IMG/VR virus record: IMGVR_UViG_3300015360_000023
Location: 64,001 to 128,000 of that record
Strand: one strand, 5' to 3'
DNA length: 64,000 nt
DNA from: a virus
Lineage: Duplodnaviria > Caudoviricetes
Part shown: positions 8,109 through 42,400 of the stretch, one piece after another
Layout: each line of letters opens with the position of its first letter
How positions within the stretch are numbered: the stretch's first letter is position 1
Program-made: the position numbers and the translations under genes
The notes under the pieces: generated by a model
What the model was told of the DNA's origin: nothing
Database searches by the model: none
Seen by the model: the letters and a program-made list of their open reading frames with translations, nothing else

Positions 8109-11100
8109 ATGGCTAACATACCAGGCGCAACAAATGTCCTACCAGGAGTTTTTACTGACGTAATAACTCAATCACGTGGAGTATCCGTTCCTGGTGGTTC
8201 ACGTATAGCTGCAATGATCGGTGAAGGCTCTACCGACGAAACTATCGTTTCGCAAGCCCTTGGCGGCGGCCAAGATGGTTTAAATTCAAGTTATACCGGC
8301 ACTACTGGCCGAGACGGAAGACACTTCCAACTTGTTAATTTCCCATTAGTTTCTAACAGAGTTTCTATATTTAAGAATGGAATTCCACTTAATGGTCTTG
8401 AGTCTCTTATTGATTCTAATCCATTTAGCAGTAAATACGATTACAGAATTGATATTACTACAGGTAAACTGGAACTACAACGTGGTCATTTATTTGACCA
8501 AGGCGGTTCTTTCTGGACGGCTCTTTCTACTAACGTAGGTCAAGGCTCTCTTTCTAGCCTAACTTTGGTTGATGCCAATGCTCTTCCAGAGACCTGGACT
8601 GTTAGATGTGTCAAGGTTCAAAGAAACTCTCTTAATCAACCAATTGCAAACACTGCTTCCTTCCTAGCTTTCGGTTCCGTCTCCGGTTCTAAGTTAGATG
8701 CTAATGGCAATCCAATCATTTGGCTTGCTGACGGTACTGTTGTTTCTAACGGTGTTATTAGTTTCTCTATTACCGAGACCACTCCAGTCTTTAGAGAAGG
8801 TGATGCATTCACAGTTGTAATTGCTAGCGGAGTTCTATCAAGAAACGACTCTTTAACTGCAAATTATATTCCAGTCGCTATTTTGAATGACCCTCTTCTT
8901 GTTCAAGGTCTTGGTGACGTTGTCAGAAGGCACGGTCTTCCAAGCCTAAGCAACAATCTTGCTTTGGGCGCTCAATTAGCTTTCGCTAACCAGGCTCCAG
9001 CCTTGTTAACGGTTCAGGCTGCTCCTCCACTGCCAAGAAGAACCTCTTATCTATTAAACAGCGAAGTAAATGCTTTGGCTCTAGATACAGATGAGTTCAC
9101 TTTTCCGTTGCCATTCGGTGTTATTCCGGACCTTAACTCCAACATCCACTTCTTTGTTAGAAACAATGCAACTAACACTGAAACCCAAATTCTTCCTAAC
9201 AAGTTTGATTACTACCAATTAGATGAGTCCGGCCAACCAACTACTCAACAATTTATTTTTGATGACGTACCTGCTCCAGGCGGTCACTCCTACTTCTATA
9301 CTGTAAAAGAAAGCCTTGAGGCCCTTAATTATGGTGAAGATGGTTACATCGGTAGAAACTTAGCTTTCAACAATCAAGGTCTATTTAGCTCTGCTTCTAT
9401 TACTTTTGATTCCACTTACGTAGGAAAAGCTCTAAAGATTACTGAGTCTAATAACTCCGCTAACTTCGGTATCTTCAATGTTACCGCAGTTCAAAATGGT
9501 AAACTTTATGTCGTAGCCGATGATAGCATTTTCTCTCCATCTACTCTACAAGCTAATCCAGTTTACTTATCAGACTTCATTAACGTTGCAACTCCAACGG
9601 CCTCCTTCCGTGTAATTGATCCAGTTACTGGATTACCAGTCGGCGGTGGCGCAGGTACTGACGGTTACATCACCACTGTTGGTGCTACAACTGGTCAAGC
9701 AACTGTTAAGAGCGCTTCTGTTAATACTAACGCTATCGCAGGTATCTTAGGGTACAAGCTAGAGATTACTGGCCCAACTACTAACTTCACGGCAGCACAG
9801 CCAGTTGGTAACCTTGGCCTATATGATATTTCTGCTGCACCTACATTCACTGTAACTGGTGCAACAAATGCATCTCCAATTGAAATTACAACCAGCACTG
9901 CTCACGGTTTATCCTCTCAGGACACCGTAACCATCTCTGGTGTTGTTGGTAACACGGCAGCTAACGGAACTTTCCAGGTTGTCAGCACTGGTGCAAATAC
10001 ATTCACCTTAAATGGTTCAACGGGTAACTCTGCATATGTTTCTGGTGGAACTGTATATCCTCACAAGCTAACTATCACTAAGGCTATCGTTAACGAAAGT
10101 GATCTTGAATTCGAAGTTCTAGACCCAACACTTACGAGCAGCTATGTTGTTGTTAACCACAACGTAGTTCCAAACGGATATGGTCTAAGAGTAACTATCG
10201 TTGACTCTAGAGATGCAAGCTTCTACGATGCAGGCTGGATCAATGCCTTCGATGCTCTTGAAAAGGTCGAATGTGACATTCTGGTTCCGCTTCCAAAGCA
10301 AACTATCTCCATTATTTTCCAGACCGCTTTAGCTCACTGTATAACAATGAGCAATATCCGTAACAAGAAAGAAAGAGTCTTGTTCATGGGAGCAATTAGT
10401 GGTTTGACCCCTGACAACATCACTGGTGTTAAGCCGGCCGCTGTTGAAGACATCGGCGTCCTAGAAGGTATTCAAGGCGAAACCGTAACCGACATTCTTG
10501 CCGGTAACGTTGAAGACTTGGCTAACTACTCTGTTCCAGATGCCTTTGGTAACACCTTCAGAGCTGTATACTTCTATCCAGACCAGATTGTTGTTCAAGC
10601 TGGTTCTGACAATGTCTTGATTGACGGATTCTACCTAGCCGCAGCCGCTGCTGGATATGAGGCTGCCGACGTAAGACTTGAAAACCCACTTACAAAGAAG
10701 ATTCTAACCGGATTCACTATCCTTAGAAATAAGCAATTCTCTCCACAAACTCTTGAAGCCTTGGCTACAGCCGGTGTCACTACCTTGCAGCCAGTTGCAG
10801 GAGGCGGTCAGATCGTTTGGGGACGCACCACTACTCAGAGTGGATTCCCAGAAGAGCAAGAAATCTCAATTGTCTTTATCAGAGACAGGGTAGCCAAAAC
10901 CTTGAGAGCAGGATTCGAAGGTTTCATTGGAAACCCAGAATCAGTTAATACTGGTGCAATTTTGAATACTCGTGGTGTCATCTTGATGAACTCACTAGTA
11001 GCTCAAGGATTGATTACTCAGTATAAGGACTTATCTGTCATCAGAGATGATGTAGATCCAACTCAATGGAACATTACTGTTAGAGTTCAACCAACCTACC

Positions 11101-11144
11101 CAATTAACTTCATTTATATCAAGGTAAGTTTGGGACAACTATAA
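8109..11144 (+). CDS. contractile tail sheath protein (1011 aa, with inserted domains)
   Basis: N-terminal PGVFTDV...IAAMIGEG and C-terminal RDRVAKTLRA...LVAQGLI...NITVRVQPTYPINFIYIKV are sheath hallmarks. Followed by the tube gene. Confidence 0.9.
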   Translation: MANIPGATNVLPGVFTDVITQSRGVSVPGGSRIAAMIGEGSTDETIVSQALGGGQDGLNSSYTGTTGRDGRHFQLVNFPLVSNRVSIFKNGIPLNGLESLIDSNPFSSKYDYRIDITTGKLELQRGHLFDQGGSFWTALSTNVGQGSLSSLTLVDANALPETWTVRCVKVQRNSLNQPIANTASFLAFGSVSGSKLDANGNPIIWLADGTVVSNGVISFSITETTPVFREGDAFTVVIASGVLSRNDSLTANYIPVAILNDPLLVQGLGDVVRRHGLPSLSNNLALGAQLAFANQAPALLTVQAAPPLPRRTSYLLNSEVNALALDTDEFTFPLPFGVIPDLNSNIHFFVRNNATNTETQILPNKFDYYQLDESGQPTTQQFIFDDVPAPGGHSYFYTVKESLEALNYGEDGYIGRNLAFNNQGLFSSASITFDSTYVGKALKITESNNSANFGIFNVTAVQNGKLYVVADDSIFSPSTLQANPVYLSDFINVATPTASFRVIDPVTGLPVGGGAGTDGYITTVGATTGQATVKSASVNTNAIAGILGYKLEITGPTTNFTAAQPVGNLGLYDISAAPTFTVTGATNASPIEITTSTAHGLSSQDTVTISGVVGNTAANGTFQVVSTGANTFTLNGSTGNSAYVSGGTVYPHKLTITKAIVNESDLEFEVLDPTLTSSYVVVNHNVVPNGYGLRVTIVDSRDASFYDAGWINAFDALEKVECDILVPLPKQTISIIFQTALAHCITMSNIRNKKERVLFMGAISGLTPDNITGVKPAAVEDIGVLEGIQGETVTDILAGNVEDLANYSVPDAFGNTFRAVYFYPDQIVVQAGSDNVLIDGFYLAAAAAGYEAADVRLENPLTKKILTGFTILRNKQFSPQTLEALATAGVTTLQPVAGGGQIVWGRTTTQSGFPEEQEISIVFIRDRVAKTLRAGFEGFIGNPESVNTGAILNTRGVILMNSLVAQGLITQYKDLSVIRDDVDPTQWNITVRVQPTYPINFIYIKVSLGQL

Positions 11145-11155
11145 GGACTAACTAA

Positions 11156-11869
11156 ATGACTACTGCACCAAATACAGGTTCTACTACATCAGTTAACGGA
11201 TCAGTTAACAAGACCAGTACGGCCATTTCTACTAACATCATTATCATGGTAAATAACACTGCTGTCGGTGCTATTCAGTCCATGGCTATCTCTGAGAAGA
11301 GAGGCATTAAGATGATTGATGAAGTTGGTACAGACGGTCATATTGATTCTGTTCCAAACGTTTCAACTAACATCTCTGGTACTTGCCAAAGAGTTAGATT
11401 TGACAGACTAAGAATTACCGAAGCTTTCAGCAGAGGATTCATTCACGTTGCATCTCAAGTTTATCCATTTGACATTGTCATCTTGGATAGACAAAAGAGA
11501 GCACAAGCTCTTCAAATTTCTACGGTTATCAAGAACGTATGGATCAACGGTATCGATTACACTTATCAAACCAGCGACTGGGTTATCACTGACTCTATGA
11601 CCTGGGAAGCAGAAAGCATCTTCAGCATTCTTAACGGTGGAACTTCTCCAAACTCTGGTGGTGTCCCTGTTGCAGTTGGTGGTGAAAGAGGCATTAGACA
11701 TATGGGTGGTGGCCTTAACGGTGACCGTACCATTATCAGCGGTAACGATGTTAGTGGCCAAGCTATTCAGAACATTGAACAACTTGTTGACACTGGATCT
11801 AGCGGTAGAAGAGGTTCTCTTGATGCAGCCGGTCTTATTGACATTGGCAGCTCTGGCGATCTATACTAA
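11156..11869 (+). CDS. tail tube protein
   Basis: Follows the sheath. IIIMVNNTAVGAIQSMAISEKR...TCQRVRFD...VIKNVWINGIDYTYQ...ITDSMTWEAE fits the T4 gp19-like tube pattern. Confidence 0.8.
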   Translation: MTTAPNTGSTTSVNGSVNKTSTAISTNIIIMVNNTAVGAIQSMAISEKRGIKMIDEVGTDGHIDSVPNVSTNISGTCQRVRFDRLRITEAFSRGFIHVASQVYPFDIVILDRQKRAQALQISTVIKNVWINGIDYTYQTSDWVITDSMTWEAESIFSILNGGTSPNSGGVPVAVGGERGIRHMGGGLNGDRTIISGNDVSGQAIQNIEQLVDTGSSGRRGSLDAAGLIDIGSSGDLY

Positions 11870-11891
11870 TCTAACTCCCCTATAAACAAAT

Positions 11892-11936
11892 AAACAGCCT
11901 GTTATTGATATATAATCAATAGCAGGTTTTGTTTTT
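11892..11936 (+). terminator. hairpin plus U-tract, a probable intrinsic terminator or regulatory hairpin
   Basis: CCTGTTATTGAT (11898-11909)/ATCAATAGCAGG (11915-11926) forms a 12-bp stem with one G-U pair and an ATATA loop, followed by TTTTGTTTTT. Confidence 0.65.
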
Positions 11937-11946
11937 GGAGTTAAAT

Positions 11947-12618: not shown

Positions 12619-12650
12619 TATATGAACCGGAACATCGTTTCACCTGGTTC
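12609..12650 (+). promoter_or_regulatory. -1 programmed ribosomal frameshift signal (A AAA AAA plus downstream hairpin)
   Basis: Seven A at 12609-12615 in X XXY YYZ phase. An 8-nt spacer is followed by a GAACCGG (12624-12630)/CTGGTTC (12644-12650) stem. The -1 frame is open into ORF 12699-12986. Confidence 0.8.
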
Positions 12651-12986
12651 CTTTGTAAGAAGTACCAGAAACTGCCTGATGATCCATTCATAATTGATAT
12701 GGACCCGGTTCAAAGAGTCTGGCTCTTCAATAATTGGATAGCCGATCAAAATGATAATGCGGAACTTGCCAAGAATCACGCATATCTATTAGCATCCTTT
12801 TGGAATCCAGAGGCTGTCAAGCAGATATTGGGCGACAACAATGTTCACGAATCAACGGAAGAAGAATATGAAGAGTCTCTTGATATCGTAAGAAATCAAA
12901 GCCTTTCTCTACTGCCAGTGAAAGAAGCAACCCAGGAAGAACCACAAGTAAGAAGAAGACGCAGACCCCTAGCTACTAAGGCTTAA
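12609..12986 (+). CDS. frameshift extension of the tail assembly chaperone (gpGT analogue)
   Basis: The -1 frame reads KKIIYEPEHRFTWFLCKKYQKLPDDPFIIDMDPVQRVWLF... with no stop until 12986. ATG 12699 has no evident SD. Confidence 0.75.
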   Translation, partial: KKIIYEPEHRFTWFLCKKYQKLPDDPFIIDMDPVQRVWLFNNWIADQNDNAELAKNHAYLLASFWNPEAVKQILGDNNVHESTEEEYEESLDIVRNQSLSLLPVKEATQEEPQVRRRRRPLATKA

Positions 12987-23762: not shown

Positions 23763-25934
23763 ATGAGTCCTTGTGATCCGAATGATGTATCAGTTAATGT
23801 TCCGGATGGCCCGAGTGGTCCAGCCATTCCTGGGTTTGGTACGCCTTTCGCATTAAAACTGCCCAATTTGAATCCTTTTCCAGATGGATTCCCTGAGAAC
23901 TTATTAGAGCTATTAGAGAAGTTACAATTTTTGATTCCACCGGGCGCCCTAAAAGCACCCTTGAATCCAAATTTCGGCAAAGATGTGTTCGATGCTATCA
24001 TGAAGCTATTGGACCAGTTCATGCCATTCTTAATGTTGTATAAATTCTTTCTTCCTATTCTGGAACTTATTATTTGTATTATTGAAGTGCTATGTGCCTT
24101 GATGAATCCATTCAAACTTATTAGAGCTTTGAATAGATTGTTTACTCGTTGTATTCCGGCCTTCTTGAATCTGTTTCCGATTTTTGCTTTAATTATTATG
24201 ATTATTTCTTTGTTGTTGCTTATCCTAGCACTCATCGAATACATTATCTCTCAAATCATTAAGCTCATCCTAATGATTCTAAGAAATATCAATGCGCTTA
24301 TCAAAGCCTTTGATGATGGTGACGAAGACGGTGTCTTAGCGATTGTTCAAAAGCTAGGATCTCTTCTATGTATGTTCCAAAATTTGTTTGTACTATTCTC
24401 TATTTTTAATATCATCATTCAGGTTATTAAAGATATTCTTTCCTTGCTATTCCATATTCCTCCTTGTGAAGATGGTGATCCAAGCGATGAAGATAACTGC
24501 TGTACTCCCGATGTATGTCCAGCCATTGTTAAGCAACAATATCAGAGATCCACTGGTCACTTCAGATATCTACCGCAGGTGTCTGTCGCCACATCCTTGT
24601 CGTTACCTGCCGCCTTTGGTGGTGCATTTAATTTTGATGTTCGTCCAGAGAGTATGCAGTTGTTCGATCTTGAACAAGGGTTAAATGAACAGTTCAGAAA
24701 TATCTTTGATGCTAATGATGTAACTATTTCTCCAAAGCCAGTCTTCTTCCCAACAGATGCGACGTACACCAATACGACTGATCCGCGTCAGGCCCCTTAT
24801 GTCATTGACATGAGAATGTACTACAATCCAGCAAGCTGGGGTCGTCAAGGTTCTGCTCGCTTTATCAAATTCACTAACTGTATATTGACTAAGGTTCCAA
24901 GCACATCATTAACTAACGGTGACTTATCTATTACGGATATTTATAATGCAGTTGGAATTCCAGCAGGCGGCATCGGCTTCGAAGATGACGGTAGCACTCT
25001 ATTTGGATTTGCTGCTGACGGAGTAACTCCAACGCTAATCCCAGCTACCCTTGAGAACTTTTTCCATATGCCGGGATTTGCTTCATCAAATCCACATCTA
25101 AAGATTACTGATGGGTACCAATTCAATAATGTTGAATATATTTTCAAGCCAAATATCGCTCCTCTTCTACAGAAGAACATCGTTACTCTTGGATGTGTTC
25201 CATCTATTGCAACCAATAGATCTTTTATCAATAATATCTTTGCTGGCGATATTGCCCTTAAAACTCAATTACTAGGCAGACTAGTTAATAGCCCTGCATT
25301 CCCAAGTCCCGCAGCCGCTCAAGAGTGTTTAGCTACCGCTATTACAGGCCTAAGAGCCAATATGACTGCCGCAGGAGTTGCGGTATTTCAGGCAACTTGC
25401 GATATCTGTCTTGATAAACTTAGAACAGATACTAATAATGCTTTAGGTCAAATGGTTGGAATTGGATTCGATCCATGTAAGAGCACAATCGTAGCCTCAC
25501 CAAGCCAGCAGTTCACCACATTGCCAATCGTAGTGACGGTCAACCTAAATGAAAGAAATGGTCTACCACTAAGTACCGGAGTTTCTACTATAGTTGGTAA
25601 TGACTTAGCGGCCCGTATTAAGGGTCACGTTACTTTTGGAAATGTTGGTAACTTTACTTATGATGGATACCAAGCATTCACTGCAAATATTACTAGCGCT
25701 ACGCCAGGTAATGGAACCCTAATGGTTTCTTTTGATAATCAAACTTTCTGTACTAACACTATTCCAGATGATGTTGATGTATCTCCTACTCACGACTTGC
25801 AAGAAATTCCATACAGATTCATTTACGCTCCATTCACTTTGGGCGGCGGAGTTGGTACGGGCGAAGGCGATACCGATGGCCAGCCAAGAAGAGATGCGGG
25901 TGACCAGGCCAAAGAGAGTGGCGGGGATAACTAA
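23763..25934 (+). CDS. multi-TM hydrophobic protein with a Cys cluster and a C-terminal Big_1/invasin-like Ig domain
   Basis: Long hydrophobic helices at about aa 80-230, then PPCED...DNCCTPDVCP, then KSTIVASPS...VTVNLNERNGLPL...FTANITSATPGNGTLMVSFD. Confidence 0.6.
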   Translation: MSPCDPNDVSVNVPDGPSGPAIPGFGTPFALKLPNLNPFPDGFPENLLELLEKLQFLIPPGALKAPLNPNFGKDVFDAIMKLLDQFMPFLMLYKFFLPILELIICIIEVLCALMNPFKLIRALNRLFTRCIPAFLNLFPIFALIIMIISLLLLILALIEYIISQIIKLILMILRNINALIKAFDDGDEDGVLAIVQKLGSLLCMFQNLFVLFSIFNIIIQVIKDILSLLFHIPPCEDGDPSDEDNCCTPDVCPAIVKQQYQRSTGHFRYLPQVSVATSLSLPAAFGGAFNFDVRPESMQLFDLEQGLNEQFRNIFDANDVTISPKPVFFPTDATYTNTTDPRQAPYVIDMRMYYNPASWGRQGSARFIKFTNCILTKVPSTSLTNGDLSITDIYNAVGIPAGGIGFEDDGSTLFGFAADGVTPTLIPATLENFFHMPGFASSNPHLKITDGYQFNNVEYIFKPNIAPLLQKNIVTLGCVPSIATNRSFINNIFAGDIALKTQLLGRLVNSPAFPSPAAAQECLATAITGLRANMTAAGVAVFQATCDICLDKLRTDTNNALGQMVGIGFDPCKSTIVASPSQQFTTLPIVVTVNLNERNGLPLSTGVSTIVGNDLAARIKGHVTFGNVGNFTYDGYQAFTANITSATPGNGTLMVSFDNQTFCTNTIPDDVDVSPTHDLQEIPYRFIYAPFTLGGGVGTGEGDTDGQPRRDAGDQAKESGGDN

Positions 25935-27678: not shown

Positions 27679-28110
27679 ATGTCGTTTGACCTGAAATTAC
27701 GTGCTGGTGACTTAGTTCTCACAAATGGAGCCTTAGTAACAGCCATAGATAGTGAAAAACTAATTCAAGATATTTTGAAGATTTGCCTGACAACGGCCGG
27801 ATCTAATCCAATTCATCCATGGTATGGTTCTTTTATTTCAAGAACTATTGTGGGTAATCCAAATTACAGCTCTATTTTAGTTCAAATTGGTAAGTCTCAG
27901 TTAACTACTGCGCTTCAAAATTTGAAGGATTTACAAGACTTACAGATTAAATCCTTTCAAAGAGTTAGTGCTGATGAACAAATAAGTGCTATTTCGGATA
28001 TATCTATAAATACAGATAGAGTCGATCCAAGGCTATTTAATGTTGTAGTAAGCGTACTTTCTAAAGGGTTGAAACCAGTAACAACCGCTTTCAGAATATC
28101 AACCATTTGA
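27679..28110 (+). CDS. gp25/GPW-like baseplate wedge protein (sheath initiator)
   Basis: DSEKLIQDILKICLTTAGSNPIHPWYGS pattern, 143 aa, preceding baseplate J. Confidence 0.8.
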   Translation: MSFDLKLRAGDLVLTNGALVTAIDSEKLIQDILKICLTTAGSNPIHPWYGSFISRTIVGNPNYSSILVQIGKSQLTTALQNLKDLQDLQIKSFQRVSADEQISAISDISINTDRVDPRLFNVVVSVLSKGLKPVTTAFRISTI

Positions 28111-28128: not shown

Positions 28129-31100
28129 ATGGTCACAATACGCTCAGTAAACGAAATCATCTTAAGCTTGATAGACTACTACAGGTTAGCCCAACCTGAT
28201 TTAGATACCAAACCGGGCACCGTGGCTCGCGATTTGATGATCGACGGCCCTTCGAGCCAGCTTGCTTTGCTATATGACCAACTATCAAGCGTCTCTAGTC
28301 AGCAATCTATGAGACTTGTTATTGGTGCCGACCTGGACAAGCTAGCCAAAAACTTCGGAGTTATTAGAAAGCAATCTACTTCTGCTACAGGAGTCGCTCT
28401 ATTAACCTTTGCATCCATTAATGCACCTATTCCTATTAACACCGGAAGCTTAGTTATTTCTAATAATGGTTTTTCTTACTCTATTACTTCAGGAGTCTCA
28501 GTTACTCCTGGCTCTTCTAACTTCTATCGTTCAGTAGCTAGTAAATTTCAAGACCAACTAGATGCTGCCGGAATTAAAGATCAATATGCGGTTGAAGTTA
28601 CTGTCATAGCAACCACCGCAGGCTCTTCTGGTAACATTGGAACACTATCTCTAAATAGAACTAACGTCTCTGGCGTCTCCAACGTAACCAATATAAATTC
28701 ATTTACTGGCGGGACTGATCAAGAAGATGACTCTAACTTCCGTAATCGCGTCCTCGCGGCCTTTAGCGGGTCGAGCATAGGAACTGCCTTGGGCTACCTA
28801 AACACCGCCCTAGGTACCACTGGCGTGTCGGACGCGGCCGTTATTGAACCAGGCGATGCTCTAATGACCAGAGACGGCACCGTTGTCAGCATAGCTAGCG
28901 ACGGAACTCGTACTATTGTCTCAGAGGGCTCTGGAGGAAAAGTAGATGTTATTGTTCTAGGTTCTAGCTTAGTTCAAAATACAGATACTTTCATTTACAA
29001 AGATAAAAGCAACAACACAGATCCTACTAGTGTTAAAAATGATGTGGTCATTGGTCAAATTGCGGCTGATGTTAATAAAACTATTAACAGAAAAAGAATT
29101 GATGATCTTAAAGCTGGTCAAGTTCCAGCTCAACCAGTTAATGATATACTAACTGTTACTGGATCTATAAGCGGCTCCAATTTTATTGCCAAAACAACAG
29201 ATACTTATGGCAGAGTCTCTGGAAATTTTGAATTACTTAAAGATACTGGTGTTTACGGCGGCAGCCCTTTTGGATTTGATACGTTTCATTGGGTCTCCAA
29301 TAAAATTTCATTATTCAGTGAAGATAGAATTAAGAGCCAGTTCAACGGACAAGACCCTACAACATTTACTGATGTATTAGAGATTCCTCAAGTTCAACAA
29401 AGCCTTTCTATTACTAACGAAAACAGCATCGTTACTAGTGATAAATCTATTATTCAATTACTTCATACACCAGCTACTAGTATTACTAGAGTTTTCAATG
29501 TTAACACTGGTGAAAGATATATTATCACAGATCAAGATCTTGATGAGACCGGCGTATACAATACTACTGGACGTATTCAAATCTCTGGTAACACGCTACC
29601 ATCCACTAGTGACCTACTACAGGTAGACTATAGCTGGATCGTTAATTTTGATCAGCATTCCGATTATGATGGGTTAACCCAAACAAGTAATCCAAGAAAC
29701 GTTACAGATAGCATTGACTGGGGTTACTCTTCCGCCATTCATAATGAGCGAGTCAACTTTGTACTAACGGTTGGAGACAACTTCTTTACCGGAACAACCA
29801 GCCACCCAGTTGATACTGTGGTTTCTACCAATGTATTTACTGAGGTTGATGCTGCGGTTACCTTGGTTACTTCCGGAACTTATGTTAATAGGCTCTCTGT
29901 CGTTATTGATCATTTACCAGTAACTGTAGATAGCGTTGATCAGATAACTCTTAAGAATTCTAATATTGAAATTTACAATAGCGCTCAAGCAAACGGTAGT
30001 TTCACTGTAACTACCGAAGTAGTTGGTATTGAAATTCTATATGTATTAACGGTTATCTTACCAAATGATACGGTAGCTAAGGCTGGCGATACTGTTAGCG
30101 TTATTCTAAATAGCACTAATGTCTTTCACTCTGAAGAAACGGCCGGTAGTAGCAGCGGTACACAGATTACCATTCCAAGTTCTTTAATTAATACTACAGC
30201 TACTAACATCACCTTACTAGTAACTTACATTGCGAATATCACTGATTTGTTTGCGGCCTCTGTTACTGCCCTTCCATCGAGCAAGGTCGGCAATGGATTC
30301 AACCTATCTAACAACAACGGGTTCCCAAATTTTAGCTCGGCCAATACATCTGTTAGAGAGAATCAAATTGTTCAGCAAAACCTTAGCAATCAATATTATA
30401 TTGAAGTAACTGCGCCTAGTGCTGATTTCACCATTGCAGCTTCGCAAGTTGTTTCCATTATCAGACTATCTGACGGATATGAATTATGGTCGGCCAATCA
30501 TCCCGGAACCATCGATATTGGAATTTCGGGTAATTACCAATTTATTTTACCAGGTTTAAACACGCCAGCTACTGGGGACAGAGTTTTGGCCGTTTATTAT
30601 TCTACAGATATCAGAAGGTTTCAACCATTTAGTTTTAGCAACTCTTTGATTAAGACAAGGGTACATAACTTAGCTTATGTAGCTCCTGCCAATACAAAGT
30701 TTAGCGTTCCATTAAATAGTTTCACTAATGCCACAGGGTTATCTTTTTATGTTATTGAGCCTAATACAGATATTGTCTTGTTATCTGGTTCAGATGGCGT
30801 GTTAACTACCAGCATAAGCGGTAGTGCTAATTTCACCAGCTCTACTGTTGACTTTTCTGATCAAGTAGATATTACACATAAAAAGATAAAAATAGTAACG
30901 CCAGTTAGCGGACTTACTCGTTTGAATAACGATGGCGTTTATGATATTACTAGTTATACTTTGAGCGGTAATAGTTTGGTTATTACTGAGGTGTTAAGTA
31001 ATATAAATAAAGATAACATCTCTGTTATTAGAGTAGTTGATGGCAAGGAAGTTTGGGGTTATTCTGGAACTATAGATCTAGCTAACAATAGAATAACTTT

Positions 31101-32243: not shown

Positions 32244-35200
32244 ATGGTTGGCAAACTAAGTATCATCAATGTCAAAGTCGTAGATAATTCAAATATAGAT
32301 GTCACTTTTTCTTCGACTTTAACAGCTAATTTGATTACGTCTAACGTTACTATCGTTAGCGATACTATCGGTGCGCCTGATTCTGAGATATTAAATGTTA
32401 AAGTTTCTGGAGCTTTACTATCAATCACTTGCCAGCCGCTCACTCCATTAGCTTCTTATTTCATAATTTTTAAGTCATCTCCGTTGCACCCATTTCAATC
32501 ATTGAATGGTGATTTTTACTTACCAGAAGATGGTGTTAATAACAAGTATGGCATTACTGCTCAGTTAGATGCCGATAATCCTATTAAGAATTATCTTGGC
32601 GCTTTCTTTAGAGATAACGTCTATAAACTAGATGATGATAATACGCTTGTAGCTAAATACATTCAATCTCTTGCTGTTGTTTTATCAAGAGCGCTTTATG
32701 ATATTGGTCAAGTTAAAAATGAAAACTACTTATCTTTCACTATAGCAGATGAAAGAAGAATTAGGGGAGCGGGAGCTTTTGATAGACTAGATGAAGAGGG
32801 CGCGTATTCCGTCTCAAGAGTAGGTAGAACTCCTACTGGATTCGCCGCTAATCAAACTTTTGTATTCTCTTCTTTCCCTACATTCCCGGTCACTTTGCAA
32901 AAGCAAAGCAGCGTCGAAACATTAACGCCAAACACTATTGATGATGCAGGCTTCTTTGATATTAATAACCTAACTCTTAATTTAAACAAGTCTCCAGTTA
33001 CTAGAGTTACTAGTGTTGTATTTACTCTTAACACAATCACCCCTGTATATACATATGATATTGAGCGACACGGATATCAGATTAAAGATTCTAGATACTC
33101 TCAGGATTATGGGTTTACGTACCTACAATTAGCTGATAACCAAATTAGACTTAGCGATCAAATCATATCTGATCCATTATTTGATTTAACTAAAATTATT
33201 CAAGTAGAAGTTCAGTACGAATACAAGAATTTAGGAATCATAGTTAACCCAGCAAGCGTGGTAGTTTATTCATCCGAGATTTCTCCTAGAGAAGTTCTTC
33301 CACCAATCATAAACGTTTTTAATCTGGCACACGCTCCAATCATTGATAGCTCTAATAGAATTTCTACTTTAGCTGGTGCCACTTTTGATGACCCTAATTC
33401 CAATACTGGTTCGACCCACCCAGCTTTTAAATTTGAAATTCCGTTTAGATTTGATGCTTTGCCATCAGCTCCAGGACAGTATGCTGTCGACTATAATACG
33501 GGCACAGTCTACGTCTATGGCGCCGACTTAACCAATGATGGTACTGGCCCATTTCCCCCATTAGCTACTTATAGATATAGGCTGGTATATCAATCTGAAA
33601 TTGATTACACGTATGATGATGACTTTCGTGATATTGTTGCTTTGCCTACGGGTAGCTTAGTTGAAGCGCCAGGTAACGTAGCCTTTTCTTACGAAGAAGT
33701 ATTGGTTGCAGGAATCGATTACGAGGCCAAATTACACTCAGAAGAACTTACTGAAAGAATTGATAACAACTTAGTAGCTTTCAACGTTTTAAGAACTAAG
33801 CACACGCCCATCACTAATGTCTTTAGAGTTTACAATGAAACTTCTGGAGAAATTTATACCATCAATAGATGGAGTGATGAGAAAATCTATTTTAGATACA
33901 ACACTCCTCCTCGACTTGTAGCCAGGATCGCTGAGCGCGCCACCTTCAATACAATTCCTAATGAGAAGCTATTTATACATACTACATTAGTAAATAGCTC
34001 TTCACTTAAAATTTTCCAAATATTTCTTAACAAGAATAGAGTTGTATCTTCTACTGAAGACGGTCTAGGGGCTTTCTTGAATAACAGCCTTTCATTAACT
34101 GATGCGAATGTATTTGTTAGTGAAAGATGGTATGATTCAGAATTTAGTCAAACAGTTAACATTGATAAGTTAACTATTATTGGCGAATACATGGTAGATT
34201 ATCTAAATGGAGTAATCTATTGTGCAGTTTCTAATACTCAAGGATTAGAGATTGGAACGGCCACCTATAAGAGTAGTGATATCGTTCCTGAGTTTCCACA
34301 TTTGATTGCGGTTGATGATATTTATTATCAAATTAGTCCACTTAATGAGAAGAACAAGAAATTTTCTTTTACTTCATTTGATGATGGGATCATTTCTCCA
34401 GAACTGTTAGAAATTGTTGATGAAAAATTCCTTAATGGATTTGTCGGAGCGCCTTACCAGCTCTTCAGTAAGTCTGTTGGAACTTTCTCTGGAACCTCCT
34501 TTATTTCTGGAGTAACCAATTCAGTTAAACTTGTTCGTGGACTTTATGAACACGAAGATCTAGTCTACAGCACTCGACCATTTAATTTTGCTCAATCAAG
34601 TTCATCCAACGGATTCAATGTAACAGTTAATTCTTATAGTAAACAAATTTTTGAAACAGTTCAATATGATGGAATGGATTATTACGTCAACATCAATGAG
34701 AGCGTTCCTTACTTATCAAGTAACATTACTTACGACTTCAGCGTAATAAGGGTCTCTGATGGATATCAACTATGGGATAACTCAGGAACAGTTGTTCCGG
34801 GCAGTTCAATTAAATTGATTTTTTCTGGAGTCAATTCTCCGGCCCTAGGAGACCAAGTTAATGTTATTTACTCCTTTACTATTAATGATTTATCTAGAGT
34901 TATCGTAGATTATAATAAAGGTGATTACTTTATAGACTATACTTATTTAGCAGATGAAATTATCGTTAGCTATGAATATGGTGATAACGTTCTTGATTTT
35001 CGCCGTAACACTAATTTACCTACCGACACCAATTACTTCGTTACTTATAAGGCGGGAGCCCTTAGAGATGCCTTATTAAAGAATTTCGGCACTCTAGTTA
35101 ATATTCCCGAACTATCCAATTTCGATATTGATTTTGATCGTGAGCGTTATCGTGAAGCCTTGATTGCTGCGCTAAGCTCTTTCATTCAGGGTCCAACAGT

Positions 35201-38200
35201 TGCTGCTATTAAAAATATTGGAAAAACGATTTCCCATATTGAGCCTCAGGTTATCGAAGATGCATTTATTGATTGGTCTTTGGGCAGTAGCACGTTGTAC
35301 CCAGAAAACCTAGCTACAACAGGATCATTTGATACTGAATCGGTTAAATACGGTACTGGAATTATTGTTAACGATCCAGGTCAAACTATTCAATTTCCAG
35401 TCAATTCAAACATTAGATTTGAAGAGGGAACTTTTGAAACTTGGACGAAGCCTAAGTGGAATGGCTTAGATAATGATGCTCACTTAATTTTCACCATTCT
35501 AAAAGCTGGTCTTGCTATTCCATCTAATGAGGTCTTCGTTGGTTCATCCGAGTACCACCCAGAATTAGTATCTGGATCATTTACTTTGGGTAAACTGGAC
35601 AATGCTCTAGGTACGCCCAACATCAATAAAGATGGCGTATATATTTACTACGACAAGGATGCATCAGGAAATTTCTATCGTTGGTATGTTAGAGTCATCG
35701 ACGGCTATGTTGTTCCTAATTCTGATACTTATAAAATCACCATTAAGTCTGATGGTAAATTCTATGATAATAAAAGTCTGACTCTACCAAAACCAAGTAA
35801 CTTATCTATCATGAGCGGTAATACCTCTCAAAGCTTTACCTTAACTGGCGGCAGCTTTGGCGTGGATGCCGGTATCACCTTCTTATCTGATTTGGAGCAT
35901 TACCTATTAGATTTTGGAAAAGATAAAGATCATAGTAGACTTTCTATTTATAAAGACGTTAGTGGATATATGAATTTCCGCGTCTTTGACAAAGATGGAC
36001 ATAACTTTACTGTTAGTGCCGACATCTCTGCATGGAGATACAATGAGATCCATCATATTGCGGCTTCCTGGAAACTAAATACAATTAATGGAAGAGATGA
36101 AATGCATTTATTCCTTGATGGATTTGAAGTTCCAAATATCATTAAGTATGGACAAAAATTACAACCATATCTTCATGAAAAATTCCGTACAGTAAATCCG
36201 GAAGAAATCATTGGATTAGTTGATAAGGATATCGTCGGCTCAGTGGATTTGGTAACCAACTTAGGCAGCAACGTAGTTACTTCTACTTTGAATTTTGGAA
36301 CTTACGACATTGATATTGGTGATAATATTATCATTGACGAAGTTGGATTCTCTCCTACTGGTTATACGATCACCAATGTTAGCGGCCAAGCTTTAACTCT
36401 AAGCTCATCAATGCCCACAACTTTGACCAATGGTCGTTTCTCTATCAACCGCACTCAGTTCACTGTTACTTCGGATATTGACACCGCACCAAATATCGCC
36501 GTTACAACTATCCCAACCTTCCTAACTGGAGCAGACGCTACGGGTACCAGCGGGTCTAATGTAATTACTTCTACTCTGATAAATTTTGCTACAAGCGATG
36601 TTGAGCCAGGATTCTTAATTAGAATCGATGCTCTTGGATTTGATATTTATAGTATAGTTCAGGTATCAGGTAATACGGTAACAATCGACGGTCCCTTGCC
36701 CGCCAACTTACCAGCAACAGCTTTCGCAGTTTACAGTAATACTGAAACAGAGATCCCAGGCGTAAGAGCTATTAGACCATCCTACAGCATTACTAAAGAT
36801 GGATACTTTGATAATATACTTACTATTTCAAATAATGTTTATGCTGGCGATTTAATTTTGGTTAGAACTCTAGGACTAAATCACAAAAGTATTAGAAGAT
36901 CTTATTATGTTTGGAGTGATGGTCAAGAGAATGTTTTGATGACTCAGCTTCCACCTCCAATTTCTTTGGATGAAGCTAAGATCACTAAGGTTATCTTGCC
37001 TCGTACTTTCGTAGGGCCAAGTAACTCCACATTAACTCTAGGTGTCTTTGTATCGAATAATTTCCCAGGGTTGCCAACTACTACTTCTCAAAACGGTAGA
37101 ACGCTAACGGTCACACTTTCTGGTAATAATACTGATTTTACTACGCCAGTATCTGTAGTTGTTAATGGTCTTGTTGGGGTTAGTGTTATTAGCGAAACTG
37201 TTAGTTTCACGGATTACGGCAAGCTTGATACGGTTAATAAATTCCTTACGGTTAACTATGTTCAATCATCAGCAATGCCTATTGATGTTCTTAAGAATGC
37301 TGTTACAATTGAAGTAAAAGAAAAATACCCTATTACTTACTCAGAGTCTAGCTCACTGGCCCCAGTAGTTAGATACAGCTACCACATGGGCGGGGGTAGT
37401 AGTCTATACAATGACAGCGCAACCTCTGTTAGAGATGAAAACTTCTTGTTCAGCGGGCTTGATATCGGTAACTATCTAGTTATTCATTCGCCTATGTCTG
37501 TTGCTGGATTCTACATAATTACAGGTTTCTCTGAAGATAGAAAGTCTCTTTTCATTGAGTCCACACTTCAAGCTCCAGCCCAACCACTACCTAATTTCAC
37601 TGATGGAGTTTATCAAGTTCTTAGTGTAAATGATTATAGAAGCGGATTACAGAATGGTTATTTTACCCTAGAGGATGGGGTGTTACCGTCACAGCCCTAC
37701 TTCTTGTTACATGGTTTCTATGAATTAGAATATGATACTTATACGAGTATTCGTTTAGACGCCTCTCCACATAGCGCCTTCTTAGGAACTGATTTCCTTG
37801 GACATCATCAATTTAATGGAACAATCGATCAACTTAAGATTTATTCTGTAATGTTAACCGACACCAGAATTGGGGAAACAATCCCAAGTAATCAAAGATC
37901 AATTACAAAAGATTTTAACTCTCTTAAGGCTTTAAGAACTGATATTAATACTCTTATGTTAGTTAATTTTGATTCATTGCCATTAATAAATGAATCTAAG
38001 TACTATACTAATACAAATAACTACAAGGGCCAATTTCAATCTTCTATTGTTATTAATGAAAATTTTGGAAACAGTCTAGGTATTACTAATAATCCAATCA
38101 TCATAGAAAACACGGGCATTCTAAATACTAAGAAGGAAGGAACTATTGAGTTCTGGGTTAACCCACTATTTGATAGCGCTAACGATCCCTTCGATAGATT

Positions 38201-39398
38201 CTATTTTGATGCGTATGGGGCTAAAATTGAAGAGGCGGTTAGTGTTAATAATGTTGCCGTTAAATTGTCTTCTCCAGCTAGCAGAATTTTAAGTGTTCAT
38301 CTTAAGTCTGGTGATCCTCGTATTGATTATTTCATGGGCGGCAAGATTGAGATTGATACTCAGCATGCCATCCAGGAAGCAGTTACTAGTACGACTAATA
38401 GTTACGTAACTGTTAGCAAGCCAATCCTGCAAATTATCACCGTTAAAATTGTTGGTGACAAAACTGGTACAGATTATTTTCAGACCGGAACCGTTAGTAG
38501 CGATCAGATGACCATTTACTTGGGAAGAAATCTTCCAGCTAGCAACATGCCATTGATAATTACTTATCAAAGCACCGAAAACAAGAATGTGGATTTAAAT
38601 ACTCAGGTTATTAGATTAAATAGGAAGTTACCTTATCAAAACGCTCACGTTGTGGTTAAGTACATCCCTCAAGGTCTACAGGGTGACCGTATCGCTGTCT
38701 TCAAAGACAAGGCAGGCTACGTCAACTTTGGTATCTCTGCCTCTGGTAAAGACTTCGTAGTGCGCGCACCCACTCGCTGGGCCCGTAACACCTGGCATCG
38801 TGTCAAAGCTTCTTATAAAATTAATGGGGAGCTTGGTTCTGATGAAATGAGACTGTTCCTTGATGGGTATCAGTATACGAACATTGCTTTCGGCTCTAGC
38901 ATCCTATTTGGCAAGTCTCCAATTGTATATGGTTCTGCTCAACCTGGTGCCTTCCAAGGAGCGGATGGGTATACCTTTGTTCAGAGTATCAAATTCAAAG
39001 ACTCAATAAATGATCTATATATTGGAACACAATACACTGGTGAGAACCCGGTCTTTGCCTTATTAGATAATTTTAGAATCAGCACTATTTCTAGGCCAGT
39101 CTATGCGCCGTATGGTGAACCGTTAGACGTCAATTATAGCACTAACTTAAATACAGTCTTCCCAGTTACTGAGGACTTGTTCACTACTTACTTAATGAAT
39201 TTTGACAAAAAGATGGTTCTGAATGATAATTTCGCTATTCTCAAAAACAGAAAGACCGGACTATTTGATTTTTCAGTAAATATTATAGATTCTTTTGGTA
39301 TAGTAAACAGTAGCATTAAGGTACAGGAAGTTTTGGAGAAGTTGATAAAAGTGCTAAAGCCGGCTAACTCCAGGGTATTTATCCAGTATATTAGGTGA
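32244..39398 (+). CDS. giant baseplate wedge protein (gpI/gp7-like) with two LamG/ConA-like domains
   Basis: ERYREALIAAL...GPTVAAIK and terminal LIKVLKPANSRVFIQY are wedge motifs. EGTFETWTKP...HHIAASW...LFLDG...FNGTIDQLKIY and EGTIEFWVNP...WHRVKASY...LFLDG...LDNFRIS are LamG motifs. Confidence 0.65.
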   Translation: MVGKLSIINVKVVDNSNIDVTFSSTLTANLITSNVTIVSDTIGAPDSEILNVKVSGALLSITCQPLTPLASYFIIFKSSPLHPFQSLNGDFYLPEDGVNNKYGITAQLDADNPIKNYLGAFFRDNVYKLDDDNTLVAKYIQSLAVVLSRALYDIGQVKNENYLSFTIADERRIRGAGAFDRLDEEGAYSVSRVGRTPTGFAANQTFVFSSFPTFPVTLQKQSSVETLTPNTIDDAGFFDINNLTLNLNKSPVTRVTSVVFTLNTITPVYTYDIERHGYQIKDSRYSQDYGFTYLQLADNQIRLSDQIISDPLFDLTKIIQVEVQYEYKNLGIIVNPASVVVYSSEISPREVLPPIINVFNLAHAPIIDSSNRISTLAGATFDDPNSNTGSTHPAFKFEIPFRFDALPSAPGQYAVDYNTGTVYVYGADLTNDGTGPFPPLATYRYRLVYQSEIDYTYDDDFRDIVALPTGSLVEAPGNVAFSYEEVLVAGIDYEAKLHSEELTERIDNNLVAFNVLRTKHTPITNVFRVYNETSGEIYTINRWSDEKIYFRYNTPPRLVARIAERATFNTIPNEKLFIHTTLVNSSSLKIFQIFLNKNRVVSSTEDGLGAFLNNSLSLTDANVFVSERWYDSEFSQTVNIDKLTIIGEYMVDYLNGVIYCAVSNTQGLEIGTATYKSSDIVPEFPHLIAVDDIYYQISPLNEKNKKFSFTSFDDGIISPELLEIVDEKFLNGFVGAPYQLFSKSVGTFSGTSFISGVTNSVKLVRGLYEHEDLVYSTRPFNFAQSSSSNGFNVTVNSYSKQIFETVQYDGMDYYVNINESVPYLSSNITYDFSVIRVSDGYQLWDNSGTVVPGSSIKLIFSGVNSPALGDQVNVIYSFTINDLSRVIVDYNKGDYFIDYTYLADEIIVSYEYGDNVLDFRRNTNLPTDTNYFVTYKAGALRDALLKNFGTLVNIPELSNFDIDFDRERYREALIAALSSFIQGPTVAAIKNIGKTISHIEPQVIEDAFIDWSLGSSTLYPENLATTGSFDTESVKYGTGIIVNDPGQTIQFPVNSNIRFEEGTFETWTKPKWNGLDNDAHLIFTILKAGLAIPSNEVFVGSSEYHPELVSGSFTLGKLDNALGTPNINKDGVYIYYDKDASGNFYRWYVRVIDGYVVPNSDTYKITIKSDGKFYDNKSLTLPKPSNLSIMSGNTSQSFTLTGGSFGVDAGITFLSDLEHYLLDFGKDKDHSRLSIYKDVSGYMNFRVFDKDGHNFTVSADISAWRYNEIHHIAASWKLNTINGRDEMHLFLDGFEVPNIIKYGQKLQPYLHEKFRTVNPEEIIGLVDKDIVGSVDLVTNLGSNVVTSTLNFGTYDIDIGDNIIIDEVGFSPTGYTITNVSGQALTLSSSMPTTLTNGRFSINRTQFTVTSDIDTAPNIAVTTIPTFLTGADATGTSGSNVITSTLINFATSDVEPGFLIRIDALGFDIYSIVQVSGNTVTIDGPLPANLPATAFAVYSNTETEIPGVRAIRPSYSITKDGYFDNILTISNNVYAGDLILVRTLGLNHKSIRRSYYVWSDGQENVLMTQLPPPISLDEAKITKVILPRTFVGPSNSTLTLGVFVSNNFPGLPTTTSQNGRTLTVTLSGNNTDFTTPVSVVVNGLVGVSVISETVSFTDYGKLDTVNKFLTVNYVQSSAMPIDVLKNAVTIEVKEKYPITYSESSSLAPVVRYSYHMGGGSSLYNDSATSVRDENFLFSGLDIGNYLVIHSPMSVAGFYIITGFSEDRKSLFIESTLQAPAQPLPNFTDGVYQVLSVNDYRSGLQNGYFTLEDGVLPSQPYFLLHGFYELEYDTYTSIRLDASPHSAFLGTDFLGHHQFNGTIDQLKIYSVMLTDTRIGETIPSNQRSITKDFNSLKALRTDINTLMLVNFDSLPLINESKYYTNTNNYKGQFQSSIVINENFGNSLGITNNPIIIENTGILNTKKEGTIEFWVNPLFDSANDPFDRFYFDAYGAKIEEAVSVNNVAVKLSSPASRILSVHLKSGDPRIDYFMGGKIEIDTQHAIQEAVTSTTNSYVTVSKPILQIITVKIVGDKTGTDYFQTGTVSSDQMTIYLGRNLPASNMPLIITYQSTENKNVDLNTQVIRLNRKLPYQNAHVVVKYIPQGLQGDRIAVFKDKAGYVNFGISASGKDFVVRAPTRWARNTWHRVKASYKINGELGSDEMRLFLDGYQYTNIAFGSSILFGKSPIVYGSAQPGAFQGADGYTFVQSIKFKDSINDLYIGTQYTGENPVFALLDNFRISTISRPVYAPYGEPLDVNYSTNLNTVFPVTEDLFTTYLMNFDKKMVLNDNFAILKNRKTGLFDFSVNIIDSFGIVNSSIKVQEVLEKLIKVLKPANSRVFIQYIR

Positions 39399-39406
39399 GA
39401 TAGATT

Positions 39407-42400
39407 ATGACTAAACGCACACCCGTATCCGCACAACAAAACATATGGTCTGATGGTCAACAAGTAGATAATGATGATCTTACTTTAGAACAGCAGTATA
39501 ATGATACTATTGAGTCTTCTACGATCAATAATCATGTTGGCACGGGCGTTCTCCCAGAAGTTTTAGTTCAAAATATCATTTTTGACTCGTCTTTGGCCGC
39601 TGGCGTTCTAGATGGTAAGGCTATTTTTGCTCAAAACCAACCAACTGATAAAAATCTAGGTAATCAACTAGAAGTAAGTCTAGCTCAATCCAAGGCAGCC
39701 AGCCGTAAAGCTGTTAAAGTTGCTATAATTGGGTTAGATTTTCAAAGCAATTTAGAGTTTGAAACCTTTACTTTCAAGGCTAATGAAGCTCAGGTGAGCA
39801 AGAAGCATTTTGCTCAAGTAGTTCTAATTCTATTTAATGATTTTATTGGAGATGATGAACTATCTCTTAATCTAGGTGGGCGAATCCTTATTAAGGAAGC
39901 CCGCCCAATGACACTGTCCAGGTCTCCAATTATGGTGGCTCAGGACGTTCAACCTAATCTATTCTTCCGTGACTTCTTCTTAGATGGGCCGCTATCTTTG
40001 AATGCTCTGCTTCAAGCAGCTCTTCCATTATACAATACTGATACGCTAGATATCTTTACTGGAGATCTTGAAAAGAAACTATTATTGAGTGGTGATGTTA
40101 CTACTCAAATTGGCGAGAAGTTTTTGGCTACTACCAATAACGTTCAGAAGGTTACCCTTTTACTTGCTGTTCGTAACCAAGTAATCGGCAGTGAAACCGA
40201 CTTATCCTGGAACGGCGATTTAGTTGTTAGTATTTATCCACTACAATCTGATGTAGATTGTCCGTCTGATATCGCCCCCACTTTACCTATTGATTTCTCT
40301 CCATCCAATATTCCGGTTGCTCAAATCAGTACAAACTTCGCTTCCTTACAAGCTGCGGGTATCGTTCTTGATTCTGTTCCCCAGCCAGTTGACTTCATTT
40401 TTAGCAACAGCCCTATTGCTAGTGGTAACGTTCTTATCCCTGGGCAATACTACGCGCTAGCTATCAAGAGAAGCGGCTCCGCCAACAAGTGTGACATTAT
40501 GATTGATGTTGGTGATGCTCAAATCGCTAACTCTAGAATCACTACTTTCACAGGATCTCTTTGGGTTGACATTCCTGAACAACAACTTTGGTTTAGGGTA
40601 TGGCACGATGCAGCAAAAATCTCAGACGGCCAAGCTTATGAAGCAGGTCACGGTATTGCTATTGAGAAAACTGCTCAAGATTCTAATACACTTACTACAG
40701 TAGATTATTCTAAAGAACCACTTCAGTTTACTGGAAACGATGTTTTTAGAGCTATCGTAGCTGCCACCACCGAAGAAAGTGTCCCGGTCCCAGATCAAAG
40801 AACTGGTAATCCAGTTCTTACCCGCCAGCAGTTTATTCCAAACGTTACACTATTAAATACAATTGACGTGGCTAATTTGGAGGCTGCTTCCGAGCCATTA
40901 ATCATTGGGGTTATCTCTGATAAAAATAGAAAGTTTTTCGACTCTATTTCCTCTTTGATAAATTCAAAAATTTACAGCGCGACCTTTGTTAAAGATGAAC
41001 TATTAATTAGAATCGTTGATGATGTAACTGACGGCTACAGATATGATACGGGCGTTATTGGTCTTCAAACTAATTTGCTTAATGGAGATTTCATTGGCGC
41101 TAAGTTATTCCCTAACTCTAATAATCCTAACACCTTTTATAGAATCGCTGATGCTAGACTTTGTTCTTACATCTTGGGTGACGTAGACGGTAACGGTATC
41201 ATCGACGAGCACGACTTAGATTTACTAACTTCTTATGTTGGCACTAATCTAACTCTTGGCTTGCCACTTAATACTGTTCTTACTACAGATAACGTAACTA
41301 CTACTTTCACTAACGGTTACATTACGGTTACACAACCATTTACTAATTTATTTAGTGTTACATTCCAATTGATTGAAACTTCTACTGGTACGGTTGTAGC
41401 AAGCGGTTCAGATGGTGTTCTTGTTGCCAATCCAGCCGATCCTCGTTTGGCTCAGTTTACTAGCGCTACGGTTAACTTCAATGTTATCGTCGGTCTAACG
41501 GATTACAAACTAGTTATTATTGCTCCATTGAGTGAACCAAACTACGGCGCATTTGAAATTACTTCAATTGATTCACTCACAGATGTTCTTACTCTTAGAA
41601 AAACCTATCTAACTGGAGATGCTATTGGTGAGATGCTAAGAGCCGATATTGATGGCGACTTCCATATTACTATTAATGATGGGTATTTACTAAGTAGTTA
41701 TATTGACAGGGTTCCGCTAACCATGTCTCCAACCAGCACTTTCCCTGGACCATCAACTAACGCCTACACTAAGATTGGTGTTACTTTCAATGTTCTTAGA
41801 TTTAGACTTGAGACATACATCGATAGAGCTGACGATTATACTAATTTGACTGTTGGAAGATCTGCTAGCATTCATACTACACCAGATATCTTTACCGCCG
41901 ATGGTTATTTCTCATTGCATGACTTTTTAGCCTCTCCGGTTCCAATTACTATCCAAAAGCAACTTACATGGGACGAGTCCTTAATTGTTACTAATAGTAA
42001 TCCAAAGATGGTTCCAAGTGTCTTCACTAATCAATCGGGGTTCATTCAAAATGAATGCCTTGTTGAAGGAATCAATTGTACTATCTATGGTTCTAGACCA
42101 GATTTTGATCCTGGTACTGTAGACTTCTTTGCTCCAAATAATCTAATCATTGGTCAGGGAGAAATTCACAGACCAGATGGAGAGTTTTATAAGGTAGACT
42201 TTGAAGTTGGTACCATTGTTCTAGAAATTCCAGATGGTTTATTCGGTTCTGAAAGAACTGTTAATATCTTGGATGATTTTATTGCAGACTATACTGGTGC
42301 CGGTGCAACTCGTTTAGGATTCCCATCAATGAAGTTTGCTGATTGTTCATTCGTAACAGCAGATGCTTTAGCTAATGATCAATTAAGATTCTCTGTTGCA

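Follow-up and report, generated by a model that had tools for sequence, protein, structure and literature searches.

Among the accessory domains of phage virions, the closest counterparts of the element described here are the immunoglobulin (Ig)-like domains (Big_2, I-set, fn3), small all-β units that have been added to unrelated classes of virion protein, are dispensable to the core fold of the proteins that carry them and are swapped between proteins. These domains are thought to bind cell-surface carbohydrate weakly (Fraser et al. 2006, J Mol Biol, as quoted in PMC9230969). In the type 3 multi-domain tail sheaths (Evseev et al. 2022, PMC9230969), extra domains, mostly Ig-like sandwiches or helical domains, are placed between the core's N- and C-terminal portions and lie away from the tube, with proposed roles in adhesion or stabilization; occurrence of the same domain in baseplate and fibre proteins is not reported there. 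Here we analyse a 64,000-nucleotide stretch of a tailed-phage genome (hereafter the window; bases 64001-128000 of the 202,609-bp IMG/VR virus record IMGVR_UViG_3300015360_000023) whose tail genes encode four copies of a small β module. Two copies (A and B) stand in tandem in the tail sheath, one in a Baseplate_J-like protein (bpJ) and one in a dockerin-bearing tail protein encoded by open reading frame (ORF) 39407; their coordinates and those of the surrounding features are collected in Table 1. We are highly confident that the four copies are one homologous domain that has been inserted into the proteins that carry it (below, the carrier proteins).

The original prediction, made by aligning the translations by eye, had picked out these four segments as one module, and the four peptides that it quoted are all found in the translations as spelled. 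In Smith–Waterman comparisons evaluated with 500 shuffles, copy B scores z = 11.1 against both bpJ and ORF 39407, and bpJ scores z = 18.1 against ORF 39407. The pairs that involve copy A are weaker (z = 1.6-5.7, the lowest being 1.6 against bpJ). For five of the six pairs, none of the 500 shuffles reaches the observed score. A hidden Markov model (HMM) built from the three strong copies only recovers copy A at an independent E-value (i-E) of 0.0037 among the 266 six-frame ORFs of the window; no further ORF of the 266 scores better than 0.2.

Separate orthologue alignments, one per copy, were compared with each other by hhalign. Copy B matches bpJ with a probability of 99.5% (E 2.6e-22, 85 columns) and the dockerin protein with 99.5% (E 1.1e-22, 93 columns), and bpJ matches the dockerin protein with 99.2% (E 6.9e-20, 86 columns). 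Copy A matches copy B at 95.6% (1.2e-8), bpJ at 97.3% (2.4e-11) and the dockerin protein at 95.0% (3.9e-8), each over 55-61 columns. Non-significance here had been named beforehand as the outcome that would overturn the proposal; as the profile–profile comparisons are significant for all four orthologue groups, the homology stands. Pairwise identity between the copies is 27-41%, and a few residues (D-G, S, F, G and I) are nearly invariant among them. The alternative that the similarity reflects chance or the composition of Ser/Thr/Gly-rich β-strand regions, with no common origin, could appeal to the richness of the carrier proteins in S, T, N and G and to the weak pair scores of copy A, but it is refuted by the shuffles, by profile–profile E-values of 1e-8 to 1e-22, by alignments that stay in register across six strands and by the recurrence of the same fold in independent models.

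The true length of the module is ~90-95 amino acids (aa), in six strands, and not the ~70-80 aa first proposed, the earlier segment ends having missed the last strand. The four segments match no Pfam family (hmmscan, E up to 10), the Ig-like families (Big_2, I-set, fn3 and others) included, and searches of NCBIfam, PHROGs and the PDB with the module segments and with profiles gave no match at the sequence level. The module is an undescribed and unnamed family of β-barrel domains.

The insertion is most easily seen in ORF 39407. In canonical dockerins, the linker between the repeats is short. The sequences that flank the module in ORF 39407 resemble the type I dockerins of cellulosomal enzymes (PF00404) and superpose on solved dockerins, whereas the linker between them is ~125 residues long and includes the barrel, and the protein is a phage tail component. 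Within that linker, an N-terminal extension (27 aa, aa 619-645), consisting of a β-hairpin and a short helix, precedes the barrel proper (aa 646-733). A profile of 97 sequences (alignment A2, comprising ORF 39407 aa 580-785, 75 orthologues and 21 paralogous module segments) matches dockerins in the PDB in two stretches, with E 1e-6 to 2e-9 (for example 4dh2_B, E 8.8e-8). In the structure predicted from this alignment, residues 9-191 are superposed by VIA on 2ccl_B with Z 9.4 and a root mean square deviation (rmsd) of 2.2 Å over 60 of 62 residues, at 38% identity. The single ORF 39407 sequence falls below the Pfam dockerin cut-off (14.8 versus 22.9 bits). According to the model, the flanks form a complete type I dockerin whose two calcium-binding loop–helix repeats are predicted to come together in one compact domain. 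Since the dockerin takes shape again around the inserted unit, the module's two ends lie side by side, as expected of a plug-in domain. More than 120 orthologues of ORF 39407 were found, on contigs of up to 480 kb and with 55-81% identity over aa 580-785, and the module occupies the identical site in 119 orthologues. The dockerin motif that it splits is the only one in the 202-kb record.

In the sheath, the module is in turn the recipient of an insertion. In the orthologue alignment, copy B is interrupted after strand 5 (GLYDISA) by an E1_FCCH-type domain (PF16190, E 3e-8, 34.1 bits, above cut-off) and resumes with strand 6 (KLTITKAIV); in orthologues that lack this domain, the last strand follows strand 5 directly. 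The FCCH domain is present in none of 50 IMG/VR sheath orthologues (919-974 aa, with one of 1139 aa), which show a clean alignment gap at its position, and is present in a sublineage of 1009-1014-aa sheaths from the protein collection. The 202-kb record contains five FCCH copies, the other four lying at 139-151 kb of the genome. The module itself occurs in 50 of the 50 sheath orthologues examined and in two copies in 49, the exception being a truncated fragment. The protein itself matches phrog_2839 (PHROG tail sheath) at E 3.7e-9 and, over aa 817-1007 only, resembles Phage_sheath_1 (PF04984, 28.4 bits) and Phage_sheath_1C (PF17482, 19.2 bits), in both cases below the cut-offs of 31.4 and 26.9; the modules lie outside this region. 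A tblastn search of the sheath against deposited phages gave two weak partial matches only, including the tail sheath of an Eggerthella phage at E 1e-10, and the precomputed Pfam entry PF04984 of protein P0004 was taken as support for the sheath identity. On this evidence from sequence comparison, the protein possesses the conserved C-terminal core of tail sheaths.

Clean boundaries are also visible where related proteins differ in whether they carry the module. The bpJ protein is assigned to Baseplate_J (PF04865) with 75.5 bits (E 5.4e-21, cut-off 21.1) and to phrog_6, a baseplate wedge subunit, at E 5e-36. A distant orthologue in record G002 lacks the module, leaving query aa 843-953 unmatched, with ~19 aa in their place, so that the alignment shows a clean gap; this record's dockerin protein, for its part, still has a divergent copy. 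In ORF 23763-25934, the window gene itself is free of the module, and the orthologue in a relative (P0022) carries it as a clean 115-aa insertion, which makes this a fourth carrier protein. BLASTP aligns P0022 aa 2-368 with window aa 3-363 and P0022 aa 479-850 with window aa 354-721. The insert is 40% identical to the module in the dockerin protein of its own genome, N-terminal extension included.

AlphaFold2 run on alignment A2 gave a model with a mean predicted local distance difference test score (pLDDT) of 90.1 and a predicted template modelling score (pTM) of 0.81, in which the module is a six-stranded β-barrel. The predicted strands span model residues 69-78, 83-95, 102-107, 121-126, 135-143 and 148-152, corresponding to ORF 39407 aa 648-657, 662-674, 681-686, 700-705, 714-722 and 727-731, with the G-x-D-G motif falling within the long second strand. 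Single-sequence AlphaFold2 of bpJ aa 840-1010 was uninformative (pLDDT 42.7). Searched against BFVD, the model matches independently predicted structures from an uncultured relative, namely those of its orthologous dockerin protein (E 5.5e-26), of a tail sheath, A0A6J5RGN8 (E 1.2e-6, 101 columns), and of A0A6J5RQF7, which is baseplate J-like (E 1.6e-6, with an rmsd of 2.6 across 99 columns). These matches to all three types of carrier protein indicate that the predicted fold is the same in all three, as the original prediction expected. Among solved structures, the likeness is generic. Foldseek against the PDB found nothing at E < 1e-3; VIA matched the module at Z 5-7.5 with PilZ, with trypsin half-barrels and with neck, terminator and tube-like barrels of phages; a shape search of the ESM Atlas returned generic barrels only (TM 0.3-0.5), and a feature search of the same resource had a top score of 0.84, in the chance range. 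Such purely generic barrel matches mean that the fold offers no functional clue.

When 1.84 billion representative proteins were searched with a profile built from the four copies, there were 45 matches at E ≤ 1e-3, nearly all of them orthologues or fragments of the sheath, bpJ or the dockerin protein. Of five complete related records (433-473 kb), four repeat the layout of the window, with the module twice in the sheath and once each in bpJ and the dockerin protein, and so does a fragmentary record that includes the sheath (G009); in another record, G007, four ORFs have a single copy apiece. Outside the window, the same 202-kb record encodes a 541-aa protein (genome 149448-151070, minus strand) with a module copy at i-E 1.4e-5 and an FCCH domain as well, and a 531-aa protein (genome 146371-147963) with a weaker copy. 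Three related records (G001, G002 and G004, at loci L009, L023 and L035; 433-447 kb, rated 97-100% complete) are labelled 'provirus' by IMG/VR, which is surprising for phages this large and may reflect an artefact of classification.

We built a maximum-likelihood tree of 62 module segments, each labelled by its carrier protein. The labels require just five changes on this tree, the smallest number possible, and 0 of 200 shuffles did as well. Branch support is 93/97 for copy A, 81/95 for bpJ, 95/68 for the dockerin protein together with the P0022 insert and 100/98 for a separate branch formed by the 541- and 531-aa proteins; copy B is unresolved. The alignment offers few columns, so the deep branching order is unreliable. 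That the copies cluster by carrier protein points to old paralogues, and the module has mostly been inherited vertically, with now and then a new insertion, a loss or the nesting of another domain within it. The suggestion of a mobile domain inserted into three unrelated tail proteins is thus borne out as to insertion, by the split dockerin, the gap in the G002 bpJ and the insertion in P0022. Mobility is apparent only on an evolutionary scale; copies this divergent, grouped by carrier protein and kept in the same layout in most of the related records searched, speak against active movement.

A few of the profile matches are unrelated proteins that contain several tandem repeats of the form V-G-K-x-I-x-I-x-G-A...N-N-G-x-F-x-I. 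The core motif of this wider repeat is F-[ST]-S-A-x-x-F ... V-G-K-x-[IL]-x-[IV] ... N-x-G-x-[FY]-x-I, and hhalign relates it to the module at 95.6% (E 1.3e-8, 45 columns) after removal of P0026, which was common to both alignments. The whole-library profile search matches P0044, P0046 and P0052 at E 9e-6 to 9e-4, and a search with the mixed alignment adds ~40 more repeat proteins of 450-2000 aa. Several of the repeat proteins bear Beta_helix, Pectate_lyase_3, NosD or CBM_5_12 domains, and some have weak PHROG matches to virion proteins. Copy A, the most divergent of the four, is nearest to this V-G-K...N-x-G repeat, and a repeat HMM built without any sheath sequence matches sheath aa 426-466 at i-E 3.5e-8. 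By sequence, the module is one branch, specific to its clade, of a broader and unnamed repeat, often in tandem, that is found in virion structural proteins and in β-helix proteins resembling tailspikes or depolymerases.

How the module compares with described accessory domains can now be stated more closely. E1_FCCH, like the module, is a small β domain (~70 aa) plugged into virion proteins of the same phage, and the two have in common a local G-x-x-V-x-I...N-G-x-F-x-V hairpin motif. Homology between them was considered and rejected (hhalign 7% over 29 columns with the five FCCH copies, 2.6% with the wider repeat, and no Pfam match), and FCCH stands in the sheath as a distinct domain nested within copy B. 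No E1 chain is among the matches listed in the fold searches, lists that do not rule such a fold out. In contrast to the Ig-like domains, which it resembles in size, dispensability and spread, the module is predicted to be a six-stranded barrel and not an Ig sandwich, lies inside its carrier proteins and even inside other domains rather than appended at an end, is unnamed, and is almost confined to one phage clade. The best matches listed for the model are likewise barrels (PilZ, trypsin half-barrels, phage neck and tube proteins), although these lists do not formally exclude other folds. The sheath agrees with the jumbo phages of PMC9230969 in combining a large phage with a many-domain sheath, and with the type 3 sheaths in the internal position of the extra domains. 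The module is a new instance of a known phage habit, the decoration of virion proteins with accessory domains, and no new kind of system; what is unusual is the nesting of the module in a dockerin and of FCCH in the module.

Our best overall explanation, to which we assign a probability of about 0.6, is that the module is a plugged-in accessory domain that faces outward and is adhesive. In this 430-490 kb clade of uncultured phages, a self-contained module with adjacent ends has been plugged into several virion proteins: as a tandem pair into the sheath's variable middle, into the C-terminal extension that bpJ carries, into the dockerin linker of a fibre-like protein and, outside the window, into at least one further virion protein. 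It would face outward on the assembled tail and would serve there as a multivalent accessory domain for weak adhesion to host-envelope polysaccharide, as proposed for Ig-like domains. The adhesive role taken by itself, which is argued by analogy, is more tentative and in our estimate falls somewhat short of an even chance. Several points weigh against this explanation. The module's co-occurrence with β-helix enzymes amounts to guilt by association. Its presumed position on the tail is taken from other sheaths, and the predicted fold is a generic small barrel, silent on function, that was modelled from a deep alignment for one copy, the other copies resting on BFVD models of relatives.

The alternative that survives best is a structural brace, in which outward modules would contact neighbours within or between sheath discs and at the baseplate rim and thereby stiffen a very long tail. 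A role in cementing the tail has indeed been proposed for extra sheath domains, and in phage 812 domain II touches a neighbouring subunit (PMC9230969). The strict conservation of the tandem pair in the sheath, with its position-specific sequence groups, would also fit fixed structural contacts. Bracing of a lattice is hard to picture, however, for the copies in a dockerin loop, in the 541- and 531-aa proteins or in the tandem repeats of β-helix proteins, and we consider it unlikely. The published outward placement of extra sheath domains, together with the settings in which the module is found (a dockerin loop, and tandem arrays beside polysaccharide-active β-helix domains), favours adhesion over bracing. 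We accordingly rank adhesion first, lattice bracing second, and a shared docking handle or a modification target last.

The latter two possibilities, both raised by the original prediction, can be combined into a handle that acts across the virion. One reader of the G-x-D-G, F-x-S-A and N-x-G motifs, whether a decoration protein, a fibre or a downstream glycosyltransferase, would recognise the module on sheath, baseplate, fibre and other virion proteins. If this were true, the whole tail surface would be coated or glycosylated through one address, and the split dockerin would add calcium-dependent docking; we regard it as decidedly unlikely. As a docking handle in the narrower sense, the module would be recognised on the sheath, baseplate and fibre protein by a single phage partner, which could be a decoration protein, a whisker or a fibre. 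The display of the same domain on several virion proteins is consistent with such a handle, as are its combination in ORF 39407 with a dockerin, a known protein-docking device, and the near invariance of a few residues despite the divergence of the rest. However, no cohesin (PF00963) was found in the 202-kb record, which covers ~47% of the genome, and the low identity and carrier-specific groups of the copies argue against one common binding surface, leaving this version improbable. The weakest of the functional alternatives, that a conserved loop (G-x-D-G-[YV] or F-[ST]-S-A) is modified by the downstream glycosyltransferases or another enzyme to give a glycosylated tail surface, draws on the three glycosyltransferase genes and the sugar-nucleotide dehydratase or epimerase directly after the tail genes, but the targets of these enzymes could just as well be host polysaccharide or DNA, and we think it very improbable. 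DGY tripeptides were also considered as an explanation of the module and rejected; two of the 14 in the four proteins lie within modules, and the other copies read DGV.

The remaining claim of the original prediction, that weaker copies may lie in ORF 32244, was not supported. No module HMM match reaches i-E < 1 in this ORF, and when its aa 1300-1520 were aligned with five orthologues and compared with the module by hhalign, the probabilities were 9% (p 0.004) and 2-3% (p 0.01-0.02), in register and non-significant. One HMM match, at E 0.005, falls in the same region of the orthologue of ORF 32244 in record G005. The region contains two repeats of its own (36261-36428 and 36531-36713), ~55 aa each and conserved in the five orthologues, with the pattern G-S-N-V-[VI]-T-S-T...G-[YF]-x-I...V-S-G-x-x-[LV]-T. 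A further segment with the motif I-R-x-S-D-G-Y-x-L-W is common to bpJ (aa ~698-824, window ~30220-30600) and ORF 32244 (aa 756-882, ~34510-34890). It is seen by way of the bpJ orthologue P0032 (36% identity, E 5e-10); between the window's own bpJ and ORF 32244, it did not reach E 1e-6.

The record as a whole has a GC content of 39-40% and a CheckV completeness of 47%. Its tail genes run from 1.3 kb to 43.4 kb of the window, all in the same orientation. A second, distinct module of ~114 aa is common to the N-terminal part of the sheath (aa 127-238, window 8487-8822) and a 657-aa ORF upstream of the window, with 53.5% identity (E 5e-30). ORF 23763-25934 (723 aa) combines a long hydrophobic, membrane-like N-terminal region (aa ~85-235) with a Cys-rich stretch and has no Pfam or PHROG match. 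Interleaved with the glycosyltransferase genes after the tail region is an Fpg/Nei-type DNA glycosylase at 46457-47281.

Table 1. Coordinates of the module copies, their carrier genes and neighbouring features (window positions unless marked as genome positions)
Feature	Position	Strand	Remarks
657-aa ORF with second ~114-aa module	genome 61019-62989		ends ~1 kb upstream of window start
Tail sheath gene, 1011 aa	8109..11144	+	carries two tandem module copies
Module copy A	9282..9554	+	sheath aa 392-482; three-seed HMM, hhalign
Module copy B, strands 1-5	9597..9845	+	sheath aa 497-579
E1_FCCH-type domain inside copy B, separating its strands 5 and 6	9846..10064	+	sheath aa ~580-652
Module copy B, last strand (KLTITKAIV...)	10065..10115	+	sheath aa 653-669
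Insertion site in ORF 23763-25934 (aa ~363)	24846..24854	+	window gene itself without module
gp25-like baseplate protein	27679-28110		
Baseplate_J-like gene (bpJ), 1370 aa	28129..32241	+	Pfam Baseplate_J, phrog_6
Module copy in bpJ	30724..31014	+	aa 866-962, within C-terminal extension
ORF 32244, Laminin_G_3 protein, 2384 aa	32244-39398		
Region of suggested copies in ORF 32244	36261..36713	+	aa ~1340-1490; two mutually similar repeats
ORF 39407, dockerin-bearing tail protein, 1336 aa	39407..43417	+	
Dockerin, first calcium-binding repeat and helix	41168..41242	+	ORF 39407 aa 588-612
Module unit in ORF 39407	41261..41611	+	aa 619-735; inserted in dockerin linker
Dockerin, middle helix, second calcium-binding repeat and helix	41615..41716	+	aa 737-770
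GT4, two GT2 glycosyltransferases and GDP-mannose-dehydratase or epimerase-like gene	44231-50055		directly 3' of tail genes

The analysis gives an as yet unnamed domain family its boundaries, together with a confident model and a conserved motif, from which tail-gene annotation across the large 430-490 kb clade can benefit. It also provides clear examples of domains within domains, a barrel in a dockerin and an FCCH domain in a barrel in a sheath. With the same small domain available from several proteins, the module offers a tractable test of the role of accessory domains on the tails of giant phages.

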